From: an uncultured Acidobacteriota bacterium
GTDB lineage: Bacteria > Acidobacteriota > UBA6911
NCBI GenBank assembly: GCA_963843575.1
Contig: CAWJKZ010000021.1
Span: 64,001 to 128,000 of the forward strand
Length of the DNA: 64,000 nt
Direction of reading: 5' to 3'
The notes under the pieces are model-generated. The model saw only the letters and a program-made list of their open reading frames with translations, was not told where the DNA came from and ran no database searches. Positions 52,552-59,654 of this stretch are shown piece after piece. Each line of letters opens with the position of its first letter. Position 1 is the stretch's first letter. Made by a program: the position numbers and the translations under genes.

Positions 52552-55500
52552 TCATTCGTTCGGGGCAGCCCGCTTCGCGAGGCAACAGAGCGCGGGCAGT
52601 GCGACGAGCGAAATCACGAGCGTGGAGATCAAGCCGCCAAGGATGACGGTTGCGAGCGGTCTCTGGATATCCGAGCCGATACCGGTCGCGAACGCGGCCG
52701 GCGTGATCCCCAGGGCTGCGATGACTATGAGCATGAGGAGCGGGCGGAACTGCGCGCAGGCCCCGACGAGCACAGCCTGTTTCACGGGTTGGTCGTAGTC
52801 GTGCAGCTGCCGGTTGATCTCCGTCAGGTAGAGCACCCCCCCCATGACCGCCACGCCGAAAAGCGAAACGAAGCCCACGGCGGCCGACACGCTGAAATGG
52901 ATGCCGCGCAGATAAAGCGCGAGGATGCCGCCGGCGATGGAAAAGGGCACGTTGGCGAGCACCAGCGCGGCATCCCGTGTCGAGCCGAAGGTCCAGTAGA
53001 GGAGCACGAAGATCACGCCGATGGTGACCGGAAGGATCCATGCCAGCCGCTTGCGGGCACGTTCCAGGTTTTCGAACTGGCCGCCCCATTCCACGCGGTA
53101 CCCTGGGCCGAGGCTAACCTGCTCGGCACAAAGACTCTGCGCTTCGGCGACGAAGCTTCCCTGGTCTCGCCCGCGGATGTTGGTGCGGACGCTGATCTGG
53201 CGGCGGTTCTCCCGGCGCGCGATGATGCTGGAGCCGTCGGCCACGGTGATCGCTGCCAGCCGCCCCAGCGGGATACGGCTGCCGTCCACCGACGGCACCA
53301 GGATGTTGCCGATATCCGAGACCGTGCTCCGTGCATCCGGTGCGTAGCGCACGACGATGTCGAAGGACCGCTCGCCCTCGTACATTTGACTGACCGGCCG
53401 CCCTCCGACCGCCAGCTCGATGACCTCCTGCACGTCCTGCACGTTGATGCCGTAGCGCGCCACCTCCTGGCGGTTGACCTCGATCCGGAGTTGGGCCTGA
53501 TCGGCCTCCTGCTCGATGGCCGTGTCGCGGACCCCGGTACCTGGCGCAGTATGCCCAGCACCCGCGTCGCCTTGGCGCGGAGTTCGCGCAGATCGTCCCG
53601 CTGAGGATGACGGCCAGATCGGCGGAGGAGCCGGTGACCGCCTCGGTCACCATGTCGATGATGGGCTGTGTGAAGCTGAAGGCGGCGCCTGGGATGTTCT
53701 CGCGCAACCGCAGGGCGATTCCCTCGGTCAGGTCCGTCTTGTGTTTCCCCTTCGGCCAGGTCGAGTAGGGCTCGAGGGCGACCAGGAACTCGTTCCGGTT
53801 CGGCCCGAACGGCTCGGTGTTGGATTCCTGCCGCCCGGTCTGGGAAGTGACAAGCCTGACCTCATCGGACAGGGCGATCAGCCCGCGGACCTTGCCGGCG
53901 ACCTCGGCCGATTTTTCCAGCGAGATGCCGGGCGGGAGTATGCACCGCACCCAGAGTACGCCTTCGTCAAGTTGCGGGAGGAACTCGGTCCCGAGCCGGC
54001 CCCCCAGCGAGAAGCAGCCGGCGAGGAGGAGGGCGATGCCGGCGGTGACTCGCCACGGTCGGGTCAGGAGGAATCGGAGCAGGGCCTCGTAGCGGCGCGT
54101 GAGCCAGGGGATGAAGGGATTGCGCCAGCCGCGGAATCCCCTTCCGAACAGAAACGTCGCCAGGACCGGCACGACCAGCAGCGCGATCACCAGCGCGCCG
54201 GCTAGCGCGGCGCAGATGGTGAAGGCCATCGGGGTGAAGAGCCGGCGCTCTACCCGTTCCAGCGTGAACAGCGGCAGGTAGGCGGCCACCAGGATAAGCA
54301 GGGAGAAGAAGACGGGTCGCTGCATCTCTGTGGCGGCCTGCCTGACCATGTCCTGCGTGCGGTGGCGCGACTCGGGATGGGGATCGTGGCGCAAGCGTCG
54401 CACGATGTACTCCACCATGACCAGGGTTCCGTCCACGATGATGCCGAAGTCGAGCGCGCCGAGGCTGAGCAGGTTGGCCGGGATGCCGTACAGGTGCATG
54501 CACCCGAACGCCAGCAGGAGCGACATCGGGACGGTGACGGCCGTGAGCAGGGCGGCCTGGAAGCTCCCCAGGAAGAACACGAGCACCAGGAACACGATCG
54601 CGAGCCCCTCGGCGAGCGTGCGGGAGACGGTCCGGAGCGTGTTTTGAATCAGTTCAGAACGGTCGTAGATCGGGACGATTCGGACCGACGGGGGGAGACC
54701 CCTCTCATTCAGTTCGTCCACCGCATCCCGCACGCCGGCCAGCACCTCGCTCGGGTTCTCGCCTCGACGCATGGCGACCACGCCTTCGACCCGGCCCGAT
54801 TCGCCGTCGATGCCGAAGATGCCGGCCGGCGGTTCCGCCCCGATGTTGACGCGCGCAACATCGCGCACGAAGATCGGGGTGCCTCGGTTGGACGCCACGA
54901 CAATGTTTTCGATGTCGCCAACGGACCGGACCGCTCCGACACCCCGGACGACCATGGCCTGCTGCCCGTGGGGGAGCAGGGAGCCGCCGGCGTTCTGATT
55001 GTTCGCACTGACCGAATCGGCGATGCTGTCGATGGTCAGGTCGTATTTGTAGAGGGCCAGCGGATCGATTTCGATCTGGTACTGCTTTATCAGGCCGCCG
55101 AACGGGAATACGTCGCCCACGCCGGGGACCTGCAGGAGGCGGGGCGCGATCACCCAATCCTGCAGTTCCCGCAATGCCATCGGGCCGGACTCGGGGCCCG
55201 TGATGGTGTAGCGGTAGAGTTCGCCCGCCGGGGACGTCGGCGGGGCCAGCGTGGGGTTGACCTGGTCGGGGAGGTCGGCGTCGCGCAGTCTCTCGAGCAC
55301 CACCTGCCGGGCGAAGTAGTCGTCGGTGCCGTACGCGAAAGTCAGGTCCACGACGGAAAGCCCGAAAATGGTGCGCGACCTGCGCGCCAGGACCCGGGGC
55401 ACGCTGTTCAGTGCTCGTTCGACGGGCACGGTGACCTGTTGCTCCACCTCCTCCACGGCGTGTCCGGGGTACAGCGTGATGACGATGACCTGTGTTTCGG

Positions 55501-55627
55501 ACAGGTCGGGATAGGCTTCCACCTTCAACCGGGCGAACGCCCACAGCCCCAGCCCGGCGGCTCCGAGGGTCACCAGGAGCGTGATCACACGGTGGCGAAA
55601 GGCCAGGGGCAGGAGGTTGGCAATCAA
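52552..55627 (-). pseudogene. czcA: CzcA/CusA-family heavy-metal RND transporter with two -1 frameshifts in G runs (probably assembly errors)
   Basis: EAYPDLS...PGHAVEEVEQQVT; TM4 ANLLSLGALDFGIIVDG; EFLPQLDEG; WGGQFEN; IGSDIQRPLATVILGG. Adding one G at 53597-99 and one at 53532-35 restores the frame. Confidence 0.88.
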
Positions 55628-56793
55628 CTCGCGCCTCCCGCGCTGCCGTGCAGCAGGATCGCGGCGTCGACCACCACCCGCTCGCCTGCGCGGATGCCGG
55701 AGAGTATTGCCACTCCCTGCCCGACAGACGCTCCCGTCTCGACCTTGACGCGCTGAAACTTCCCGGGGCGCTCTTCGACGAAGACCCACGAACTCCCTTC
55801 GGCCTGGACGACCGCCGCCCGCGGCACAACTGGCAGGGTGCGGGTGCCGTGGGAATGCCGGATTCTTGCGAACATTTCGGGAAGGAAGCGGCCGGCGCGG
55901 TTCCCAAGCTCGGTGCAGACCTGGACGCACCGGGTCTGAGGGTCCACCGTATCTGCGACGCGCAGGACGCGGCCGCCGAAGACCTCCCCGGGGTAGGCGG
56001 CCAGCTCGATCCTGACAAGCTCGCCTTGCTTGATCAACCGTATCGAGCTCTCCGGAACCGCCGATGTGACCCAGAGGGTGCTGAGGTCTGCGACGGTGAT
56101 GAGTGGCTCGGTCGTGTCGTTGCGATACTCGCCGTGGACCACCTTGAGCTCGAGCACCTTGCCGGCGATCGGCGAGCGCACGACGACCTGTTGGCCGAAG
56201 ACGCCGGGCTGCAGTCCGAGGATCGCGATCCGGCGGCGGCATTGCTCGCCGGCGGCGAGCGCCTCCTTCAGCGCCGCCTCGGCCGTGGTGAGGTCGCTTT
56301 CGGCGTGGAGCACGTCTTTCTGGGCCATGGCCCCGTGGCCGAACAGGTCCTGGGCGCGCTCGAGGTCGGCCCGCGCCTTGGAGAGGGTCGCGCGCACCTG
56401 CAGCTGGCTGGCTTCGGCGCGAAGGTAGTCCGACATGGCCGCTTCGGCCTCGGGGCTCTCCACGCGCAGCAGCTCCTGCCCCTGAGCCACCGCGTCCCCG
56501 AGTCGCACTTCCACCGCCGCGATGCGGCCGGCGACGGGGAGCACGATCCGGGAGATCCGATTGGGGTTGATCTCAAGTTTACCGGGGGCGACAACTTCGT
56601 CCTGTGGTATGGGGGCCGATTTCGCGGGACCGGTCCGAATCTGGGCGAGCTTCGGGGAGTTGGGGGCGAAGACTACGCGTCCGTCCGTCGGGCTCCCCGC
56701 CGCGGCTCCGGCCGCCACGCTCCGGGCAGGATTCCCGGGATGGCAACCTGAACCAAAGAGTGCGACCAGCAGTATGATCTGACAAGTTCTCAT
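55624..56793 (-). CDS. czcB: RND efflux periplasmic adaptor (CzcB/CusB-like), lipoprotein
   Basis: Lipobox-like FGSGC; VRSPIAGKV; VADLSTLWV; DTVDPQTR; FLPEMFAR; VVPRAAV. Confidence 0.88.
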   Translation of the reverse strand: MRTCQIILLVALFGSGCHPGNPARSVAAGAAAGSPTDGRVVFAPNSPKLAQIRTGPAKSAPIPQDEVVAPGKLEINPNRISRIVLPVAGRIAAVEVRLGDAVAQGQELLRVESPEAEAAMSDYLRAEASQLQVRATLSKARADLERAQDLFGHGAMAQKDVLHAESDLTTAEAALKEALAAGEQCRRRIAILGLQPGVFGQQVVVRSPIAGKVLELKVVHGEYRNDTTEPLITVADLSTLWVTSAVPESSIRLIKQGELVRIELAAYPGEVFGGRVLRVADTVDPQTRCVQVCTELGNRAGRFLPEMFARIRHSHGTRTLPVVPRAAVVQAEGSSWVFVEERPGKFQRVKVETGASVGQGVAILSGIRAGERVVVDAAILLHGSAGGAS

Positions 56794-58085
56794 GGTTTCA
56801 CCTCTTTCCCGGACACCGAGTCGAGGATGTAAAGGGCGCGGGCGTACTCCGCGCGGGCTTCGTGGTAACTCTGCATCGTTTCGTTGAATGCGCGCTCGGC
56901 GTCGAGCAGCTCGAGCAAGGTCGCATCACCACGACGGTAGGAATAGACGGTGATTTCGCGGACGTCGCGCGCCTGGCCGACCATCGCGGCGTCGATGTCG
57001 TGCAGGAGGTCGCGAGCTGTGGCGTATTGCTGGTAGGCGGCGTCGATTTCCGCGGAGAGCCGCTGTTCGAGCGCGCGCCCCCGCAATTCCAGCTGACGCT
57101 GTTCCCGGCGAGCGCGCTCGATTTCGCCCTGGTTCCGGTCGAAGAGGGGCAGCGGGATCTCGAGGAAGAAGCCGAGCGAATTGCTTTTTCCGTTGGCTCC
57201 CTGCTGCCGGCGATACTCCGCCCCCACCATATAGTCTTGGCTGGCCTGCGCCTGCTGCAACCGCACCTCGGCACCGGCGCGCTCGATATCACCGCGGAGG
57301 GCGAGTAGGTCGGGGCGCAGCCGCAAGGCACGCTCCTTCAGCACCTCGAGGGGCGATACGGCGGGGTCGCGCCTCAGGTCCCCCTCGACGTCTCGCACGG
57401 ACTCGGGCTGAGTCCTGCCCATCAGGGTCGCCAGCCGGGTCAATGCCTGGTTCAGGCGCAGCTCGCTCCGCCGGACTGAATTTCGAAACTGAAGCGCCGC
57501 CAGCCTTGAGCGGATCAGTTCCACTCTGGAAAGGTCGCCTGCCCGGGCGCGTGCCTCGTTGATCTCCACGATCCGGTCGAGCGATTCGAGGCTGAGCCGG
57601 GCTACCGAGAGGCTGTCGCGCGCGAGCTGGGCGTCGACAAAGGCACTCTGCGTGTCGAGCACCAGGATGCGTGCGGCATCCAGAAACGCGAGCTCCGTCA
57701 CCGTGCGCGCCAAGCGCGCCGATTGCACGCGCCAGCGGCGCTTCGCGCCGCGCTCGAGCAGGAGATCCGAGCGCAGGTTCAGTTCGGACGGCCCGGCGCC
57801 GTTGGCCTCGCTGAATCCCGTGCCGGCCAGATCCAGGTGGTCGCCTCCGGCGCTGAGCACCGGGTTGGGTCGCAGCCTGGCGGTGATGACGCGCGCTTCG
57901 GCGATGCCGACGTTGGCCTTTTCCGCCAGGAGCGACAGGTTGTTGCGGAGCGCCTCGTCGACCGCCTGTTCTATGCTGATCCTGGCCGGATCCGCCGCGG
58001 GCTGGTCGTTCTGAGCCGGGGCCCGCCGCGCCGCGGCCGTCCAGACCAGCGCCGCGATGCACAAACCGATTGCAGTGTGCTGCAC
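56790..58085 (-). CDS. czcC: TolC-family outer-membrane efflux protein (CzcC-like)
   Basis: ARLRPNP; LERGAKRRWR; IPLPLFDRNQGEI; YRRGDATLLELLDAER; GTG start after GAGAGG. Confidence 0.87.
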   Translation of the reverse strand: MQHTAIGLCIAALVWTAAARRAPAQNDQPAADPARISIEQAVDEALRNNLSLLAEKANVGIAEARVITARLRPNPVLSAGGDHLDLAGTGFSEANGAGPSELNLRSDLLLERGAKRRWRVQSARLARTVTELAFLDAARILVLDTQSAFVDAQLARDSLSVARLSLESLDRIVEINEARARAGDLSRVELIRSRLAALQFRNSVRRSELRLNQALTRLATLMGRTQPESVRDVEGDLRRDPAVSPLEVLKERALRLRPDLLALRGDIERAGAEVRLQQAQASQDYMVGAEYRRQQGANGKSNSLGFFLEIPLPLFDRNQGEIERARREQRQLELRGRALEQRLSAEIDAAYQQYATARDLLHDIDAAMVGQARDVREITVYSYRRGDATLLELLDAERAFNETMQSYHEARAEYARALYILDSVSGKEVKP

Positions 58086-58150
58086 GATGGCTGTTCCTCT
58101 CTTACGTGGGGATGGAAGCACCCGGACGTCGAGTCAGGGCAGGACAAGGG

Positions 58151-58450
58151 TCAGACGGCGGGGTGGAGAGGTGGAGCCCGGACCGGAGTTTCCCGGAGGA
58201 CGGTGGTGGGGGTGAAGCCGATCTTGCTCAGGCAATTGGAAATGACGAAGGTCGGGGTCGGCGGTTCGATGCCTATTGGATGGGCGAGGTCTTCGGACCA
58301 CGATCCGTGTTCGAGGTTGGTGAATGCGCAGGGTTGCGCCGAAAGCCTGTTGTGCCGGTGCCACGGGCTGAAGAGAAAGAGGCTCAGGCCGGTGATGCTG
58401 AAGAGAACAGTGAGACTGACCAGCCTTCTCGATCGAGCGTATCTGCCCAT
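58151..58450 (-). CDS. DUF2946/CzcI-like leader protein with His/Cys cluster and C-terminal RAPP motif
   Basis: 99 aa: MGRYARSRR, a hydrophobic helix, WHRH..PCAFTNLEH, then PVRAPPLHPAV; stop codon 65 nt before czcC. Confidence 0.7.
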   Translation of the reverse strand: MGRYARSRRLVSLTVLFSITGLSLFLFSPWHRHNRLSAQPCAFTNLEHGSWSEDLAHPIGIEPPTPTFVISNCLSKIGFTPTTVLRETPVRAPPLHPAV

Positions 58451-58559
58451 GCGACGTCCCACAGTTAACGTGCCTACATTAACACAGTCGAATCTGGAGT
58501 CGTGTCTTGAAAATCCATTGGGAACCCAGAACGAGGGAAGGACCGGTGGCCCGGCCAAG

Positions 58560-58589
58560 GTGGGCCGCGTCGGCCCGACGCGGCCCCTG
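58560..58589 (+). repeat. GTGG-type REP hairpin (family 2, copy 2)
   Basis: gtgggccgcgtcggcccgacgcggcccctg. Confidence 0.75.
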
Positions 58590-58636
58590 ACTCGGGGTAC
58601 ACCTCTTACGAAGCTTGAACCGCAGGGCGAGGACGG

Positions 58637-58684
58637 CAAAAACAACTCGACACGCAGGACACGGAAAAAAGCAGAAGGACACGG
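58637..58684. repeat. GGACACGG-type dispersed repeat (second copy)
   Basis: Homologous to the reverse complement of 25676-25722. Confidence 0.7.
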
Positions 58685-59046
58685 AAGGCCGAGTCCTGTG
58701 TGGCGGGTTTGCCGTCGCGTACGGCCGAAACTGCAAATCCGCCACACGGCCGCTTCCCGGCGTCCTGCGCCTGGCGCGACCGTATCGCGAACAGGGACTT
58801 CCACTTGCGCCCGGGAAACCGCGCGGCTCGCGGCTGGCACGGGAGGTGCAACTCAAGGGGTGACCGAAGAGAGGGGATCGGCGGGACCGGTCCCCGGCCA
58901 GTGCAAGCGACCTGATGAGGGCCCCCGCGGGTTTCCACACCGGTGGGCGGCCCTCCAGGCCGAACCGGTGACGAAGCAGTCATTCACCGGAGCGAACTCG
59001 ACGCGCGATTGGCTTCAACCGCGCGTCCAATTGTCGGAGGCGAAAC

Positions 59047-59448
59047 ATGAAGCACAAAACGGTTGTAACCCTGTTTGCGTTTAGCTCCCTCGTGGCGCTG
59101 AGCGGTGTGTCGGCTTTTGGCATGGCCCCGGATGGCATCAGAGCCAAAGTCCCGTTCGAATTCAGGGTCGGAAGCGTGACGCTGCCCGCCGGGGAATACC
59201 TGATCACCAGCGAATCCGCCAACGATCCGGAGCTTCTCGAACTGCGCAACGAGAACGGCTCGCCCTCGGTGCTGATCATGGCGCAGCCGCTCTATCCGAA
59301 TTCCGGCGTCTCGGTCAAACCGGAACTCGTGTTCAAGCGCGTCGGCAACCTGGAATACCTGACCCAGATCTGGGACAGTGCAGGCGAAGCGGGCGAGCGG
59401 GTGCTCGAGCCGGCGTTGGTGAACAAGTCGGGCCACCACAAGAGCTGA
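59047..59448 (+). CDS. Small secreted protein, paralog of 2821..3249
   Basis: GGAGG RBS; signal peptide; AKVPFEFRVGSVTLPAGEY...LVFKRVGNLEYLTQIW. Confidence 0.78.
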   Translation: MKHKTVVTLFAFSSLVALSGVSAFGMAPDGIRAKVPFEFRVGSVTLPAGEYLITSESANDPELLELRNENGSPSVLIMAQPLYPNSGVSVKPELVFKRVGNLEYLTQIWDSAGEAGERVLEPALVNKSGHHKS

Positions 59449-59457
59449 GCGCCGCGG

Positions 59458-59538
59458 CCTTGGAGATCCTTTGAGCTCTTCGAGAAACCTTGGAGGTGGT
59501 TTTCAGAGCTCGCCTCCTGGGCTCGAAGAGCTCGAAGA
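59458..59538. repeat. CTTCGAG/CTCGAAG-type imperfect palindrome
   Basis: gagctcttcgag pairs with ctcgaagagctc; roughly 9-nt periodicity as at 6856-6950. Confidence 0.5.
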
Positions 59539-59546
59539 GTAACGAC

Positions 59547-59573
59547 GGGCGGGGGCGGGCCGACCCCGCCCAC
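59547..59573 (-). repeat. GTGG-type REP hairpin (family 2, diverged copy 3)
   Basis: - strand gtgggcggggtcggcccgcccccgccc, with two compensatory C-G to G-C swaps relative to copies 1 and 2. Confidence 0.62.
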
Positions 59574-59654
59574 ATGGGCCCGGGGAAAAAACCGGTATCG
59601 GGTCCACCCGCGTTGACTTACAATCGCGCCGGGGCGCACAGGAGGGGTCCCGGC

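Follow-up and report, generated by a model that had tools for sequence, protein, structure and literature searches.

The closest described counterparts of the gene reported here are two copper-responsive leader peptides, CruR of Bordetella pertussis and CutF of Rhodobacter capsulatus. According to the available text of its report, CruR (Bp2923), which belongs to the DUF2946 family (PF11162), carries a CxxC motif and the arrest motif RAPP, 45 residues apart (give or take one or two); copper relieves the arrest, Rho then terminates transcription, and the untranslated spacer behind the gene is 162 bp long (PMC9426467). More than 95% of DUF2946 proteins are described as carrying an export signal, their genes head copper-related operons (TonB receptors, PepSY, ScoC, PCuAC, YcnI, and CopC), and lengthening the spacing by five residues strongly reduces copper control (PMC9426467). 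For CutF (cutFOG), the available part of the preprint describes periplasmic copper prolonging a stall of the exported nascent chain at C-terminal proline, and the stalled ribosome melting a stem-loop that hides the ribosome-binding site (RBS) of cutO (bioRxiv 10.1101/2025.02.05.636593). Here we describe a gene of similar design in a 64,000-nucleotide stretch of DNA from an uncultured Acidobacteriota bacterium (assembly GCA_963843575.1, contig CAWJKZ010000021.1, forward-strand positions 64,001 to 128,000; the whole stretch is hereafter called the window, and coordinates are counted from its first nucleotide): a 99-amino-acid leader open reading frame (ORF) located before the genes of a heavy-metal efflux pump of the resistance-nodulation-division (RND) type. 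Arguing from sequence, we propose with moderate confidence that the leader is a RAPP arrest peptide, that its stalling unmasks the Shine-Dalgarno (SD) site of the first pump gene, which encodes the outer-membrane factor (OEP), and that metal binding near its membrane anchor tunes the stall; its product would be a regulatory nascent peptide, and not primarily a working protein. What would be new is a nascent-chain sensor of the CruR/CutF kind, with His-rich candidate ligands, before a divalent-metal RND operon and in Acidobacteria.

The leader ORF (P0003 in our sequence set) lies on the minus strand at 58151..58450, with its ATG at 58450 and a TGA stop at 58153-58151, and encodes 99 amino acids followed by the stop (MGRYARSRRLVSLTVLFSITGLSLFLFSPWHRHNRLSAQPCAFTNLEHGSW...VRAPPLHPAV*). 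It is enclosed, with its in-frame ATG, in a 229-amino-acid GTG ORF call (58151..58840, minus strand), as the first-pass annotation of this DNA had proposed; the signal or transmembrane helix, the metal-ligand motif, and the RAPP five residues before the stop that the same annotation had read in the peptide are borne out as well. The N-terminus, MGRYARSRR, runs into a hydrophobic stretch, and a predicted N-in membrane anchor or signal helix, with four arginines before it, occupies residues 3-27 (58370..58444, minus strand). It is followed by the candidate metal-ligand motif S28-P-W-H31-x-H33-x7-C41-x-F43-x3-E47-H48 (58307..58369, minus strand), which in the window reads W30-H31-R32-H33-x7-C41-x6-H48; by a spacer, residues 49-90 (58181..58306, minus strand); and by the putative arrest motif R91-P94 (codons CGG GCT CCA CCT, 58169..58180, minus strand), that is, residues 91-94 of 99. 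AlphaFold2 (AF2), run with the family alignment, modeled residues 3-27 as a helix (block pLDDT 86-97) and everything else, spacer included, as coil (mean pLDDT 75.9, pTM 0.39); since no fold is predicted past the anchor helix, the model gives no reading of ligand geometry. A search of PDB sequences with the family profile returned chance-level matches only (E >= 0.49).

Relatives of the leader were few in a word-indexed search (two, with 62-64% identity), and more numerous in an exhaustive phmmer search (33 proteins at E <= 0.001) and in a profile search, which returned 54 clusters at E <= 0.01, all of 74-117 amino acids and none with a precomputed Pfam domain or a name beyond "hypothetical protein". 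One of the 33 phmmer proteins, P0031, was judged spurious and left out: it is 834 amino acids long, consists of nine almost identical repeats, each of about 83 residues, and matched weakly over nine stretches. The resulting alignment (A2) holds 73 leader sequences, and our counts of spacing and motif variants are largely based on 69 of them. H31, C41, R91, P93, and P94 are invariant in all 73, and S28, P29, W30, H33, and A92 are conserved in at least 90%. The C-terminal R-x-P-P is kept throughout (73/73: RAPP in 67, RGPP in four, RPPP in two), and only one residue follows it in 41 of the 69 members; this conservation rests on protein searches in which the N-terminal half drove most of the alignments. 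A hydrophobic 17-mer scoring above 1.6 precedes the ligand motif in 65 of 69 members, and seven residues separate the H.H from the cysteine in 64 of 69. The distance from CxF to the arginine of the arrest motif is 45 residues in 49 members, 46 in 14, 44 in two, 47 in three (including the window), and 22 in one, so that 68 of 69 members fall between 44 and 47, although the sequence of the linker is not conserved. This pattern is one that fits a regulatory nascent peptide and not a folded protein.

In the six-frame translation of the window the leader is the sole match to the family profile (E = 7.3e-29). Other frames of the window that end in RAPP turned out to be off-frame noise, and only the frame at 58154-58852 matches the profile. 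The mean frequency bias of RAPP in Acidobacteriota proteomes is 0.117, a strong depletion, according to the available source data of a recent survey of arrest motifs (Fujiwara, 2025, EMBO J; PMC12992588); because all 73 homologues keep R-x-P-P in spite of this depletion, the leader is beyond chance. It is a real, conserved gene, and its conservation together with its synteny (see below) led us to reject a spurious ORF.

The leader resembles CruR in being a small first gene of its operon with an export signal or anchor, a motif containing Cys, RAPP near the stop some 45 residues further on, and an untranslated spacer behind it. Counted as for CruR, from the position three residues after the cysteine (C+3) to RAPP, the distance is 44 residues in 49 members, 45 in 14, 43 in two, 46 in three (including the window), and 21 in one (n = 69); the lengths of 43-46 agree with the DUF2946 rule of 45 give or take one or two. 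Unlike CruR, the window protein has HxH-x7-CxF-x3-EH instead of CxxC (it reads C41-A-F-T44); across the family C+3 is most often Ser or Thr, and is Cys in five of the 69 members. The cargo differs as well, being a Zn-type RND efflux operon and not copper uptake or assembly genes, and so does the host phylum, Acidobacteriota; the output known for CruR is Rho termination, with the stall released by copper. A check against the models for PF11162 and CzcI, which the first-pass annotation had suggested, did not place the leader in either family. The window protein has no PF11162 match at E <= 1, and across 34 members there was one match, at E = 5.7, and none for the other 33; the best PF11162 score in the family belongs to a CxxC-bearing member, P0078 (15.4 bits, E = 0.032, against a gathering threshold of 23.7), and covers the stretch between the CxxC and the profile's end. 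In the ESM Atlas, the best named cluster is a 95-amino-acid Acidobacteriota one, 54% of whose members carry PF11162 (score 0.94, 180 shared features).

The four RGPP members of the family are P0046, P0076, P0077, and P0078, of which three keep a CxxC (CPFC or CPYC) followed by His; with the five members counted above, CxxC is thus kept in eight of 73. By their sequences these CxxC-bearing RGPP members are a bridge from the leader family toward the CxxC-type leaders. A search started from P0078 returned only its own three sequences. Taken together, the sequences suggest that the family branched off distantly from leaders of the CruR/CutF kind, losing the second Cys and gaining HxH...EH, and that it lies outside PF11162 as currently modeled.

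Similar to CutF, the leader carries an anchor and a Cys motif and then a spacer of some 45 residues, and both the sensing logic and the RBS unmasking that we propose are those described for CutF in the available text of its preprint. CutF's own features are a CxxxC with further Cys, an EF-P-sensitive PPP motif, copper as the ligand, and a multicopper oxidase as the target. For an efflux pump, the annotation had held that metal control would need a logic opposite to that of CruR. In CutF a copper-prolonged stall already turns on a detoxifying gene, so the opposite logic has a precedent.

Downstream of the leader are three genes on the minus strand that encode a tripartite pump, and the heavy-metal efflux operon predicted by the annotation is confirmed. 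The first, at 56790..58085 with a GTG start at 58085, encodes the CzcC-like OEP (PF02321, E = 5.4e-39); the second, at 55624..56793, a CzcB-like membrane-fusion protein (MFP; PF16576 HlyD_D23, E = 3.9e-41), which scores 142 bits against TIGR00999 (CzcB/NccB), below the cut-off; and the third, at 52552..55627, a CzcA/ZneA-like pump of the heavy-metal efflux (HME) RND type, with a TTG start overlapping the MFP stop and PF00873 (ACR_tran) matched in two frames (4.4e-148). The first, truncated frame of the RND gene scores 561 bits against TIGR00914 (CusA/CzcA family), under the cut-off of 701 bits. Among solved relatives the RND protein is closest to ZneA (626 bits), followed by CusA (373) and AcrB/MexB (about 160). 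Sequence matches thus make the operon one of the HME-RND tripartite type (CzcCBA/ZneCAB), with OEP, MFP, and RND genes, and the ZneA versus CusA scores indicate that its substrate is probably of the Zn/Co/Cd/Ni type.

The arrangement of leader and pump genes is found in other genomes. We searched species-representative genomes with a degenerate DNA pattern (W-H-x-H, the seven-residue spacing, CxF, E/D, and RAPP with a CGN arginine codon), which misses variants, and obtained nine loci, all in Acidobacteriota metagenome-assembled genomes (labeled Bryobacteraceae, Solibacteraceae, Paludibaculum, or Acidobacteria). These nine loci are silent on the conservation of RAPP, because the pattern demanded it. 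At each of the nine the pattern sits in a small ORF of the same design, which is the first gene of the operon, and OEP, MFP, and RND are the next three genes in all eight loci with enough downstream DNA, as in the window (the ninth, L009, was excluded from this count, its sequence stopping 160 nt after the leader). The genes upstream vary (an amidohydrolase in four loci; also prepilin peptidase, asparagine synthase, and metallopeptidase), and no metal regulator is among them. Similarly, the neighboring ORFs tested in the window include no gene of a two-component system and none of the MerR or ArsR type, in agreement with the annotation, which had noted no czcRS-like regulator nearby.

This synteny also bears on what the leader might sense. 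ApdA, ApdP, and SecM, in the available descriptions, share with it an R-A-P-P (or RAGP) module that acts at the peptidyl-transferase centre, carry a localisation signal at the N-terminus, and regulate the gene that follows; they differ in monitoring Sec/YidC activity and preceding Sec/YidC genes, whereas the present leader precedes a metal pump and its conserved residues are candidate ligands. A leader that monitored membrane insertion, secretion capacity, or general envelope stress in the manner of these peptides, and not metal, would likewise be expected to combine an N-terminal anchor with RAPP; however, a Sec or YidC component directly follows the leader in none of the eight loci, and the invariant residues are His and Cys, just outside the anchor, which makes such a role highly improbable.

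A second candidate for comparison is CzcI of Cupriavidus metallidurans (pMOL30), which, like the leader, is small and exported, with its gene immediately upstream of czcC. CzcI is co-transcribed with czcCBA and, in the accounts available, is reported to be a periplasmic quencher of CzcCBA activity. The leader could likewise be a stable small membrane protein acting on the pump or on the metal as a quencher or chaperone, with RAPP merely slowing its own translation. CzcI does share with it a signal peptide, a His-rich stretch, and CGVC, and has RAPD near its end; but CzcI ends in RAPD and not RAPP, has 37 residues after CGVC and not about 45, and is not recovered by profile methods: hhalign of A2 against it gave a probability of 0.2%, and NCBIfam NF045614 and NF045615 gave no match to the leader at E <= 1 (as a positive control, CzcI itself scored 172.5 bits). 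Moreover, half of the leader protein is conserved in length only, with no fold predicted past the anchor, and RAPP-like motifs are strongly avoided in ordinary proteins according to the available survey data (PMC12992588). We consider this explanation quite improbable, while noting that a small-protein reading is compatible with a regulatory role and does not exclude it.

CzcI itself (L010, 15177-15524 on pMOL30) combines a signal peptide with a His-rich stretch (WHLGHHEHRH), CGVC, and a RAPD located twelve residues before the C-terminus, and matches PF11162 below threshold (E = 0.026, 15.7 bits). Its sequence makes it possible that CzcI is a decayed relative of DUF2946-type leaders in the same place upstream of czcC.

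In the mechanism that we favor, in which a stall on RAPP exposes the OEP start, the N-terminal anchor would bring the ribosome to the membrane and insert N-in, and the His/His/Cys/Glu/His motif would therefore be exposed at the periplasmic face. The ribosome would reach RAPP, 45-62 residues past the motif, while the motif is so exposed: at the stall, residues 31-48 would lie 45-62 residues from the peptidyl-transferase centre, which for a translocon-docked ribosome whose N-in anchor is already inserted would be at or just beyond the periplasmic mouth of the channel. RAPP would then block formation of the peptide bond while Pro93 occupies the P site and Pro94 the A site, a register that we borrowed from the ApdA/ApdP structures and from the CruR toeprint, the latter showing the same RAPP register in the text available (PMC12992588). 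With this register, the CCUCUC formed by the A-site codon and the next one would be inside the arrested ribosome; otherwise paired with the GAGAGG of the OEP gene, it would be covered, and the OEP-MFP-RND operon would be translatable for the duration of the stall. A divalent metal (of the Zn/Co/Cd/Ni type) bound at the exposed motif would alter the force on the chain and hence how long the stall lasts; both the candidate His, Cys, and Glu ligands and the ZneA-like pump fit a divalent metal better than Cu(I). For an efflux pump, the sensible sign would be a stall lengthened by metal, in the way that copper lengthens the stall of CutF. The most specific form of the proposal, namely that this is the first divalent-metal arrest-peptide sensor, whose periplasmic His-His-Cys(-Glu-His) site prolongs the RAPP stall and switches an RND pump on without a regulatory protein, we put forward more tentatively, as possible on the sequences at hand and somewhat short of probable.

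Control could instead have the sign of CruR, with metal folding the exposed motif, pulling on the chain, and releasing the stall, so that pump synthesis falls with metal or the ligand is not a substrate of the pump. The release-by-ligand model of CruR, as available, and the equal spacing of 45 residues speak for this, and a compact His/Cys site at the translocon would be expected to pull, following the general force-release principle (PMC12992588, in the part available). Such a sign is physiologically odd for an efflux pump, however, and, in the available text on CutF, the same architecture gives the opposite sign, so that we regard it as distinctly unlikely.

At the RNA level, the proposal rests on complementarity between the end of the leader and the start of the OEP gene. 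The codons of Pro94-Leu95 form the anti-SD sequence CCUCUC (58166..58171, minus strand), and the SD-like GAGAGG of the OEP gene (58096..58101, minus strand) is 10 nt 5' of its GTG at 58085; the pairing of the two, predicted by the first-pass annotation from their complementarity, does form in the minimum free energy (MFE) structure of the window. We recoded RAPP and tail codons synonymously with local codon usage, 150 times per locus. In the window, the probability that the SD is paired to the stall window is 0.98 for the native sequence and 0.06 in the recodings, none of which (0/150) reaches the native value. Similarly, 0/150 recodings reach the native value in L006, L003 gives p = 0.033, and L001 is borderline (p = 0.053), with a Fisher combined p of 8.6e-4 over the 10 loci (the nine loci and the window). 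Codon choice in the window thus favors SD pairing, yet such pairing is not general across the loci. When the segment from the Arg codon to the OEP start is folded, the RAPP codons pair with the SD region in the MFE structures of L001, L004, L006, L007, L009, and the window (6/10), and partially in L008; in L005 the SD region pairs instead with CCCUCCCUC, which starts 2 nt past the leader stop.

Codon usage in the arrest motif points in the same direction. In seven of the 10 loci, the first Pro of RAPP is encoded by the rare codon CCT, giving rise to CCUCC; in the adjacent OEP genes, CCT accounts for 10 of the 105 Pro codons, and the bias is significant (binomial, 6.6e-6). It is not due to recent shared ancestry, because the ten leaders (nine loci and window) are only 30-61% identical to one another. 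The SD of the window, GAGAGG, is unusual and is matched by CCUCUC, while the other loci have GGAGG together with CCUCC.

Between the leader stop and the OEP start is an untranslated spacer of 65 nt (58086..58150, minus strand; 25 C and 15 G), without an Rfam match or a terminator-like site; across the loci such spacers span 49-88 nt. It is here that a CruR-type output has to be considered, in which the stalled ribosome shields spacer RNA from Rho, and the stall sets transcriptional read-through and not access to the SD. Rho is the mechanism shown for CruR, the closest characterised relative, in the available text (PMC9426467), and the spacers of the window and L009 are C-rich and G-poor with no intrinsic terminator found. 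The annotation had pointed to a C-rich tract after the leader stop, and this holds for the window but not for the family: outside the window, the spacer of L009 alone is C-rich (18 C versus 11 G), making two of 10 loci, and in the remaining eight G equals or exceeds C. The confinement of the tract to these two loci weakens a Rho/rut reading for the family; in addition, several spacers hold GC-rich hairpins, all are short compared with the 162 bp of CruR, and both the CCUCC-creating codon bias and the recoding result favor base pairing with the SD. An output through Rho is therefore unlikely in our view, though the least so of the explanations that compete with SD unmasking. The GC-rich hairpins, which lack a U-tract, lie just 5' of the SD; they were seen in L001 (8193-8262) and in the spacers of L002, L003, L005, L006, and L008.

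Several results weigh against an arrest peptide that opens the OEP start in response to metal, most of them at the RNA level. In the recoding control, six of the 10 loci are not significant, and with 45 nt of extra upstream sequence L004, L009, L003, and L008 favor other C-rich partners. The fold of 58060-58260, which takes in the 58085-58200 that the annotation had proposed to fold, is no more stable than its shuffles (z = 0.12, with 109 of 200 shuffles doing as well), and a significantly stable segment is present in L001 alone (z = -3.3). The probability that the SD is unpaired does not differ from that in dinucleotide shuffles in any of the 10 loci, and the duplex energy of the stall window with the RBS ranks between 10th and 88th of 99-111 windows (not significant, Fisher p about 0.1). 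Overall, the RNA evidence for coupling between the stall and the SD is weak. As for the peptide, an EH pair like E47-H48 of the window is present in just 30 of 69 members, and the disulfide explanation available for CutF is not transferable, because the leader family has one invariant Cys. As for the sign of control, physiology and CutF speak for a prolonged stall, and the CruR model and the general rule that folding near the exit releases arrest speak for the opposite. In force-profile experiments with Zn fingers, metal-driven folding reportedly releases arrest; by analogy, metal-driven folding of the nascent chain would be expected to release the arrest here and to switch the pump off. Finally, the reading frame of the window's RND gene shifts two times over some 60 nt, near 53595 and 53535 (region 53463-53600, minus strand), so that the pump is not readable as a single ORF, and tblastn with the intact L003 protein finds it spread over three frames, which reflects either decay of the operon or imperfect assembly.

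If the proposal is nevertheless right, its interest lies in the control of the pump. Heavy-metal RND pumps are usually assumed to be under two-component systems or extracytoplasmic function (ECF) sigma factors. In the classical czc system, CzcRS does not yet account for how the core czcICBA unit is controlled, according to the descriptions available. A leader of the kind proposed would provide a regulator-free control circuit for such pumps, in which periplasmic metal is read during leader synthesis; it would carry the sensing of metal by nascent chains beyond copper, to divalent metals, and into Acidobacteria, and the 45-residue ruler shared with CruR and CutF would become a general design rule for transmembrane nascent-chain sensing. 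CzcI might then be a decayed descendant of such a leader.

We also compared the leader family with the published survey of RAPP and RGPP (Fujiwara, 2025, EMBO J; PMC12992588). In the parts available, that study reports both motifs to be depleted from proteomes and used in arrest peptides upstream of diverse genes; small proteins with a C-terminal RAPP or RGPP were surveyed by downstream gene, and those bearing His/Cys were proposed to be metal sensors (PMC12992588). Its source data, as available, show RAPP upstream ORFs (uORFs) to be enriched upstream of TolC/RND genes, and the leader of our locus L005 appears in its uORF list as row 2610 (PMC12992588). Another entry is an Acidobacteria-like uORF of 94 amino acids that precedes a TolC gene; it has W30-H-H-H33, then C41-P-I-C44 after seven residues, and RAPP 44 residues on, so that its numbering is the one of the window protein while its CxxC is intact (PMC12992588). 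Thus one member of the leader family, and RAPP uORFs before TolC/RND genes, are already in published data, undiscussed in the available text: efflux, TolC, RND, and transporter are absent from that part of the main text, and the leader family, its motif, spacing rule, and synteny are not described there (PMC12992588). Similarly, the available text of the CruR report does not mention RND, czc, zinc, histidine, or Acidobacteria, and has efflux in a reference title alone (PMC9426467); and the full-text literature yielded no paper joining arrest peptides to heavy metal efflux, or RAPP, RND, stalling, and metal. For the RAPP uORFs before TolC/RND genes, the present family offers a testable model (a fixed spacer, defined ligands, and an anti-SD at the A site), and this rule, if true, would cover hundreds of so far unexplained RAPP uORFs upstream of TolC/RND genes in the public data available.

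The same list includes at least dozens of anchored, His-rich (PHHHH-type) uORFs that end in LRAPP and precede CusA/CzcA-family genes; they are apparently Bacteroidota-like, and one of them is named DUF6769 (PMC12992588). In the source as available, these are a separate, undescribed class of the same apparent design.

Around the leader and operon, the neighboring long ORFs of the window code for a Ser/Thr kinase that carries PD40 repeats, for a subtilase, and for a GH42-like protein. About 1 kb (58451-59489) separates the leader from the divergently oriented Ser/Thr kinase gene; this interval holds no consensus promoter and no Rfam family, and small ORFs in 58451-59490 have no Pfam matches. More widely, Rfam gave no match on 57500-59600 at E <= 1, and scans for consensus promoters and terminators found none. 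In two of the other loci, the RND gene has immediately downstream of it a gene for a tyrosine recombinase with Phage_integrase and SAM-like domains (L004, 1445-2353, and L005, 1423-2331, both on the minus strand), which hints that the leader-pump cassette may adjoin mobile DNA there.

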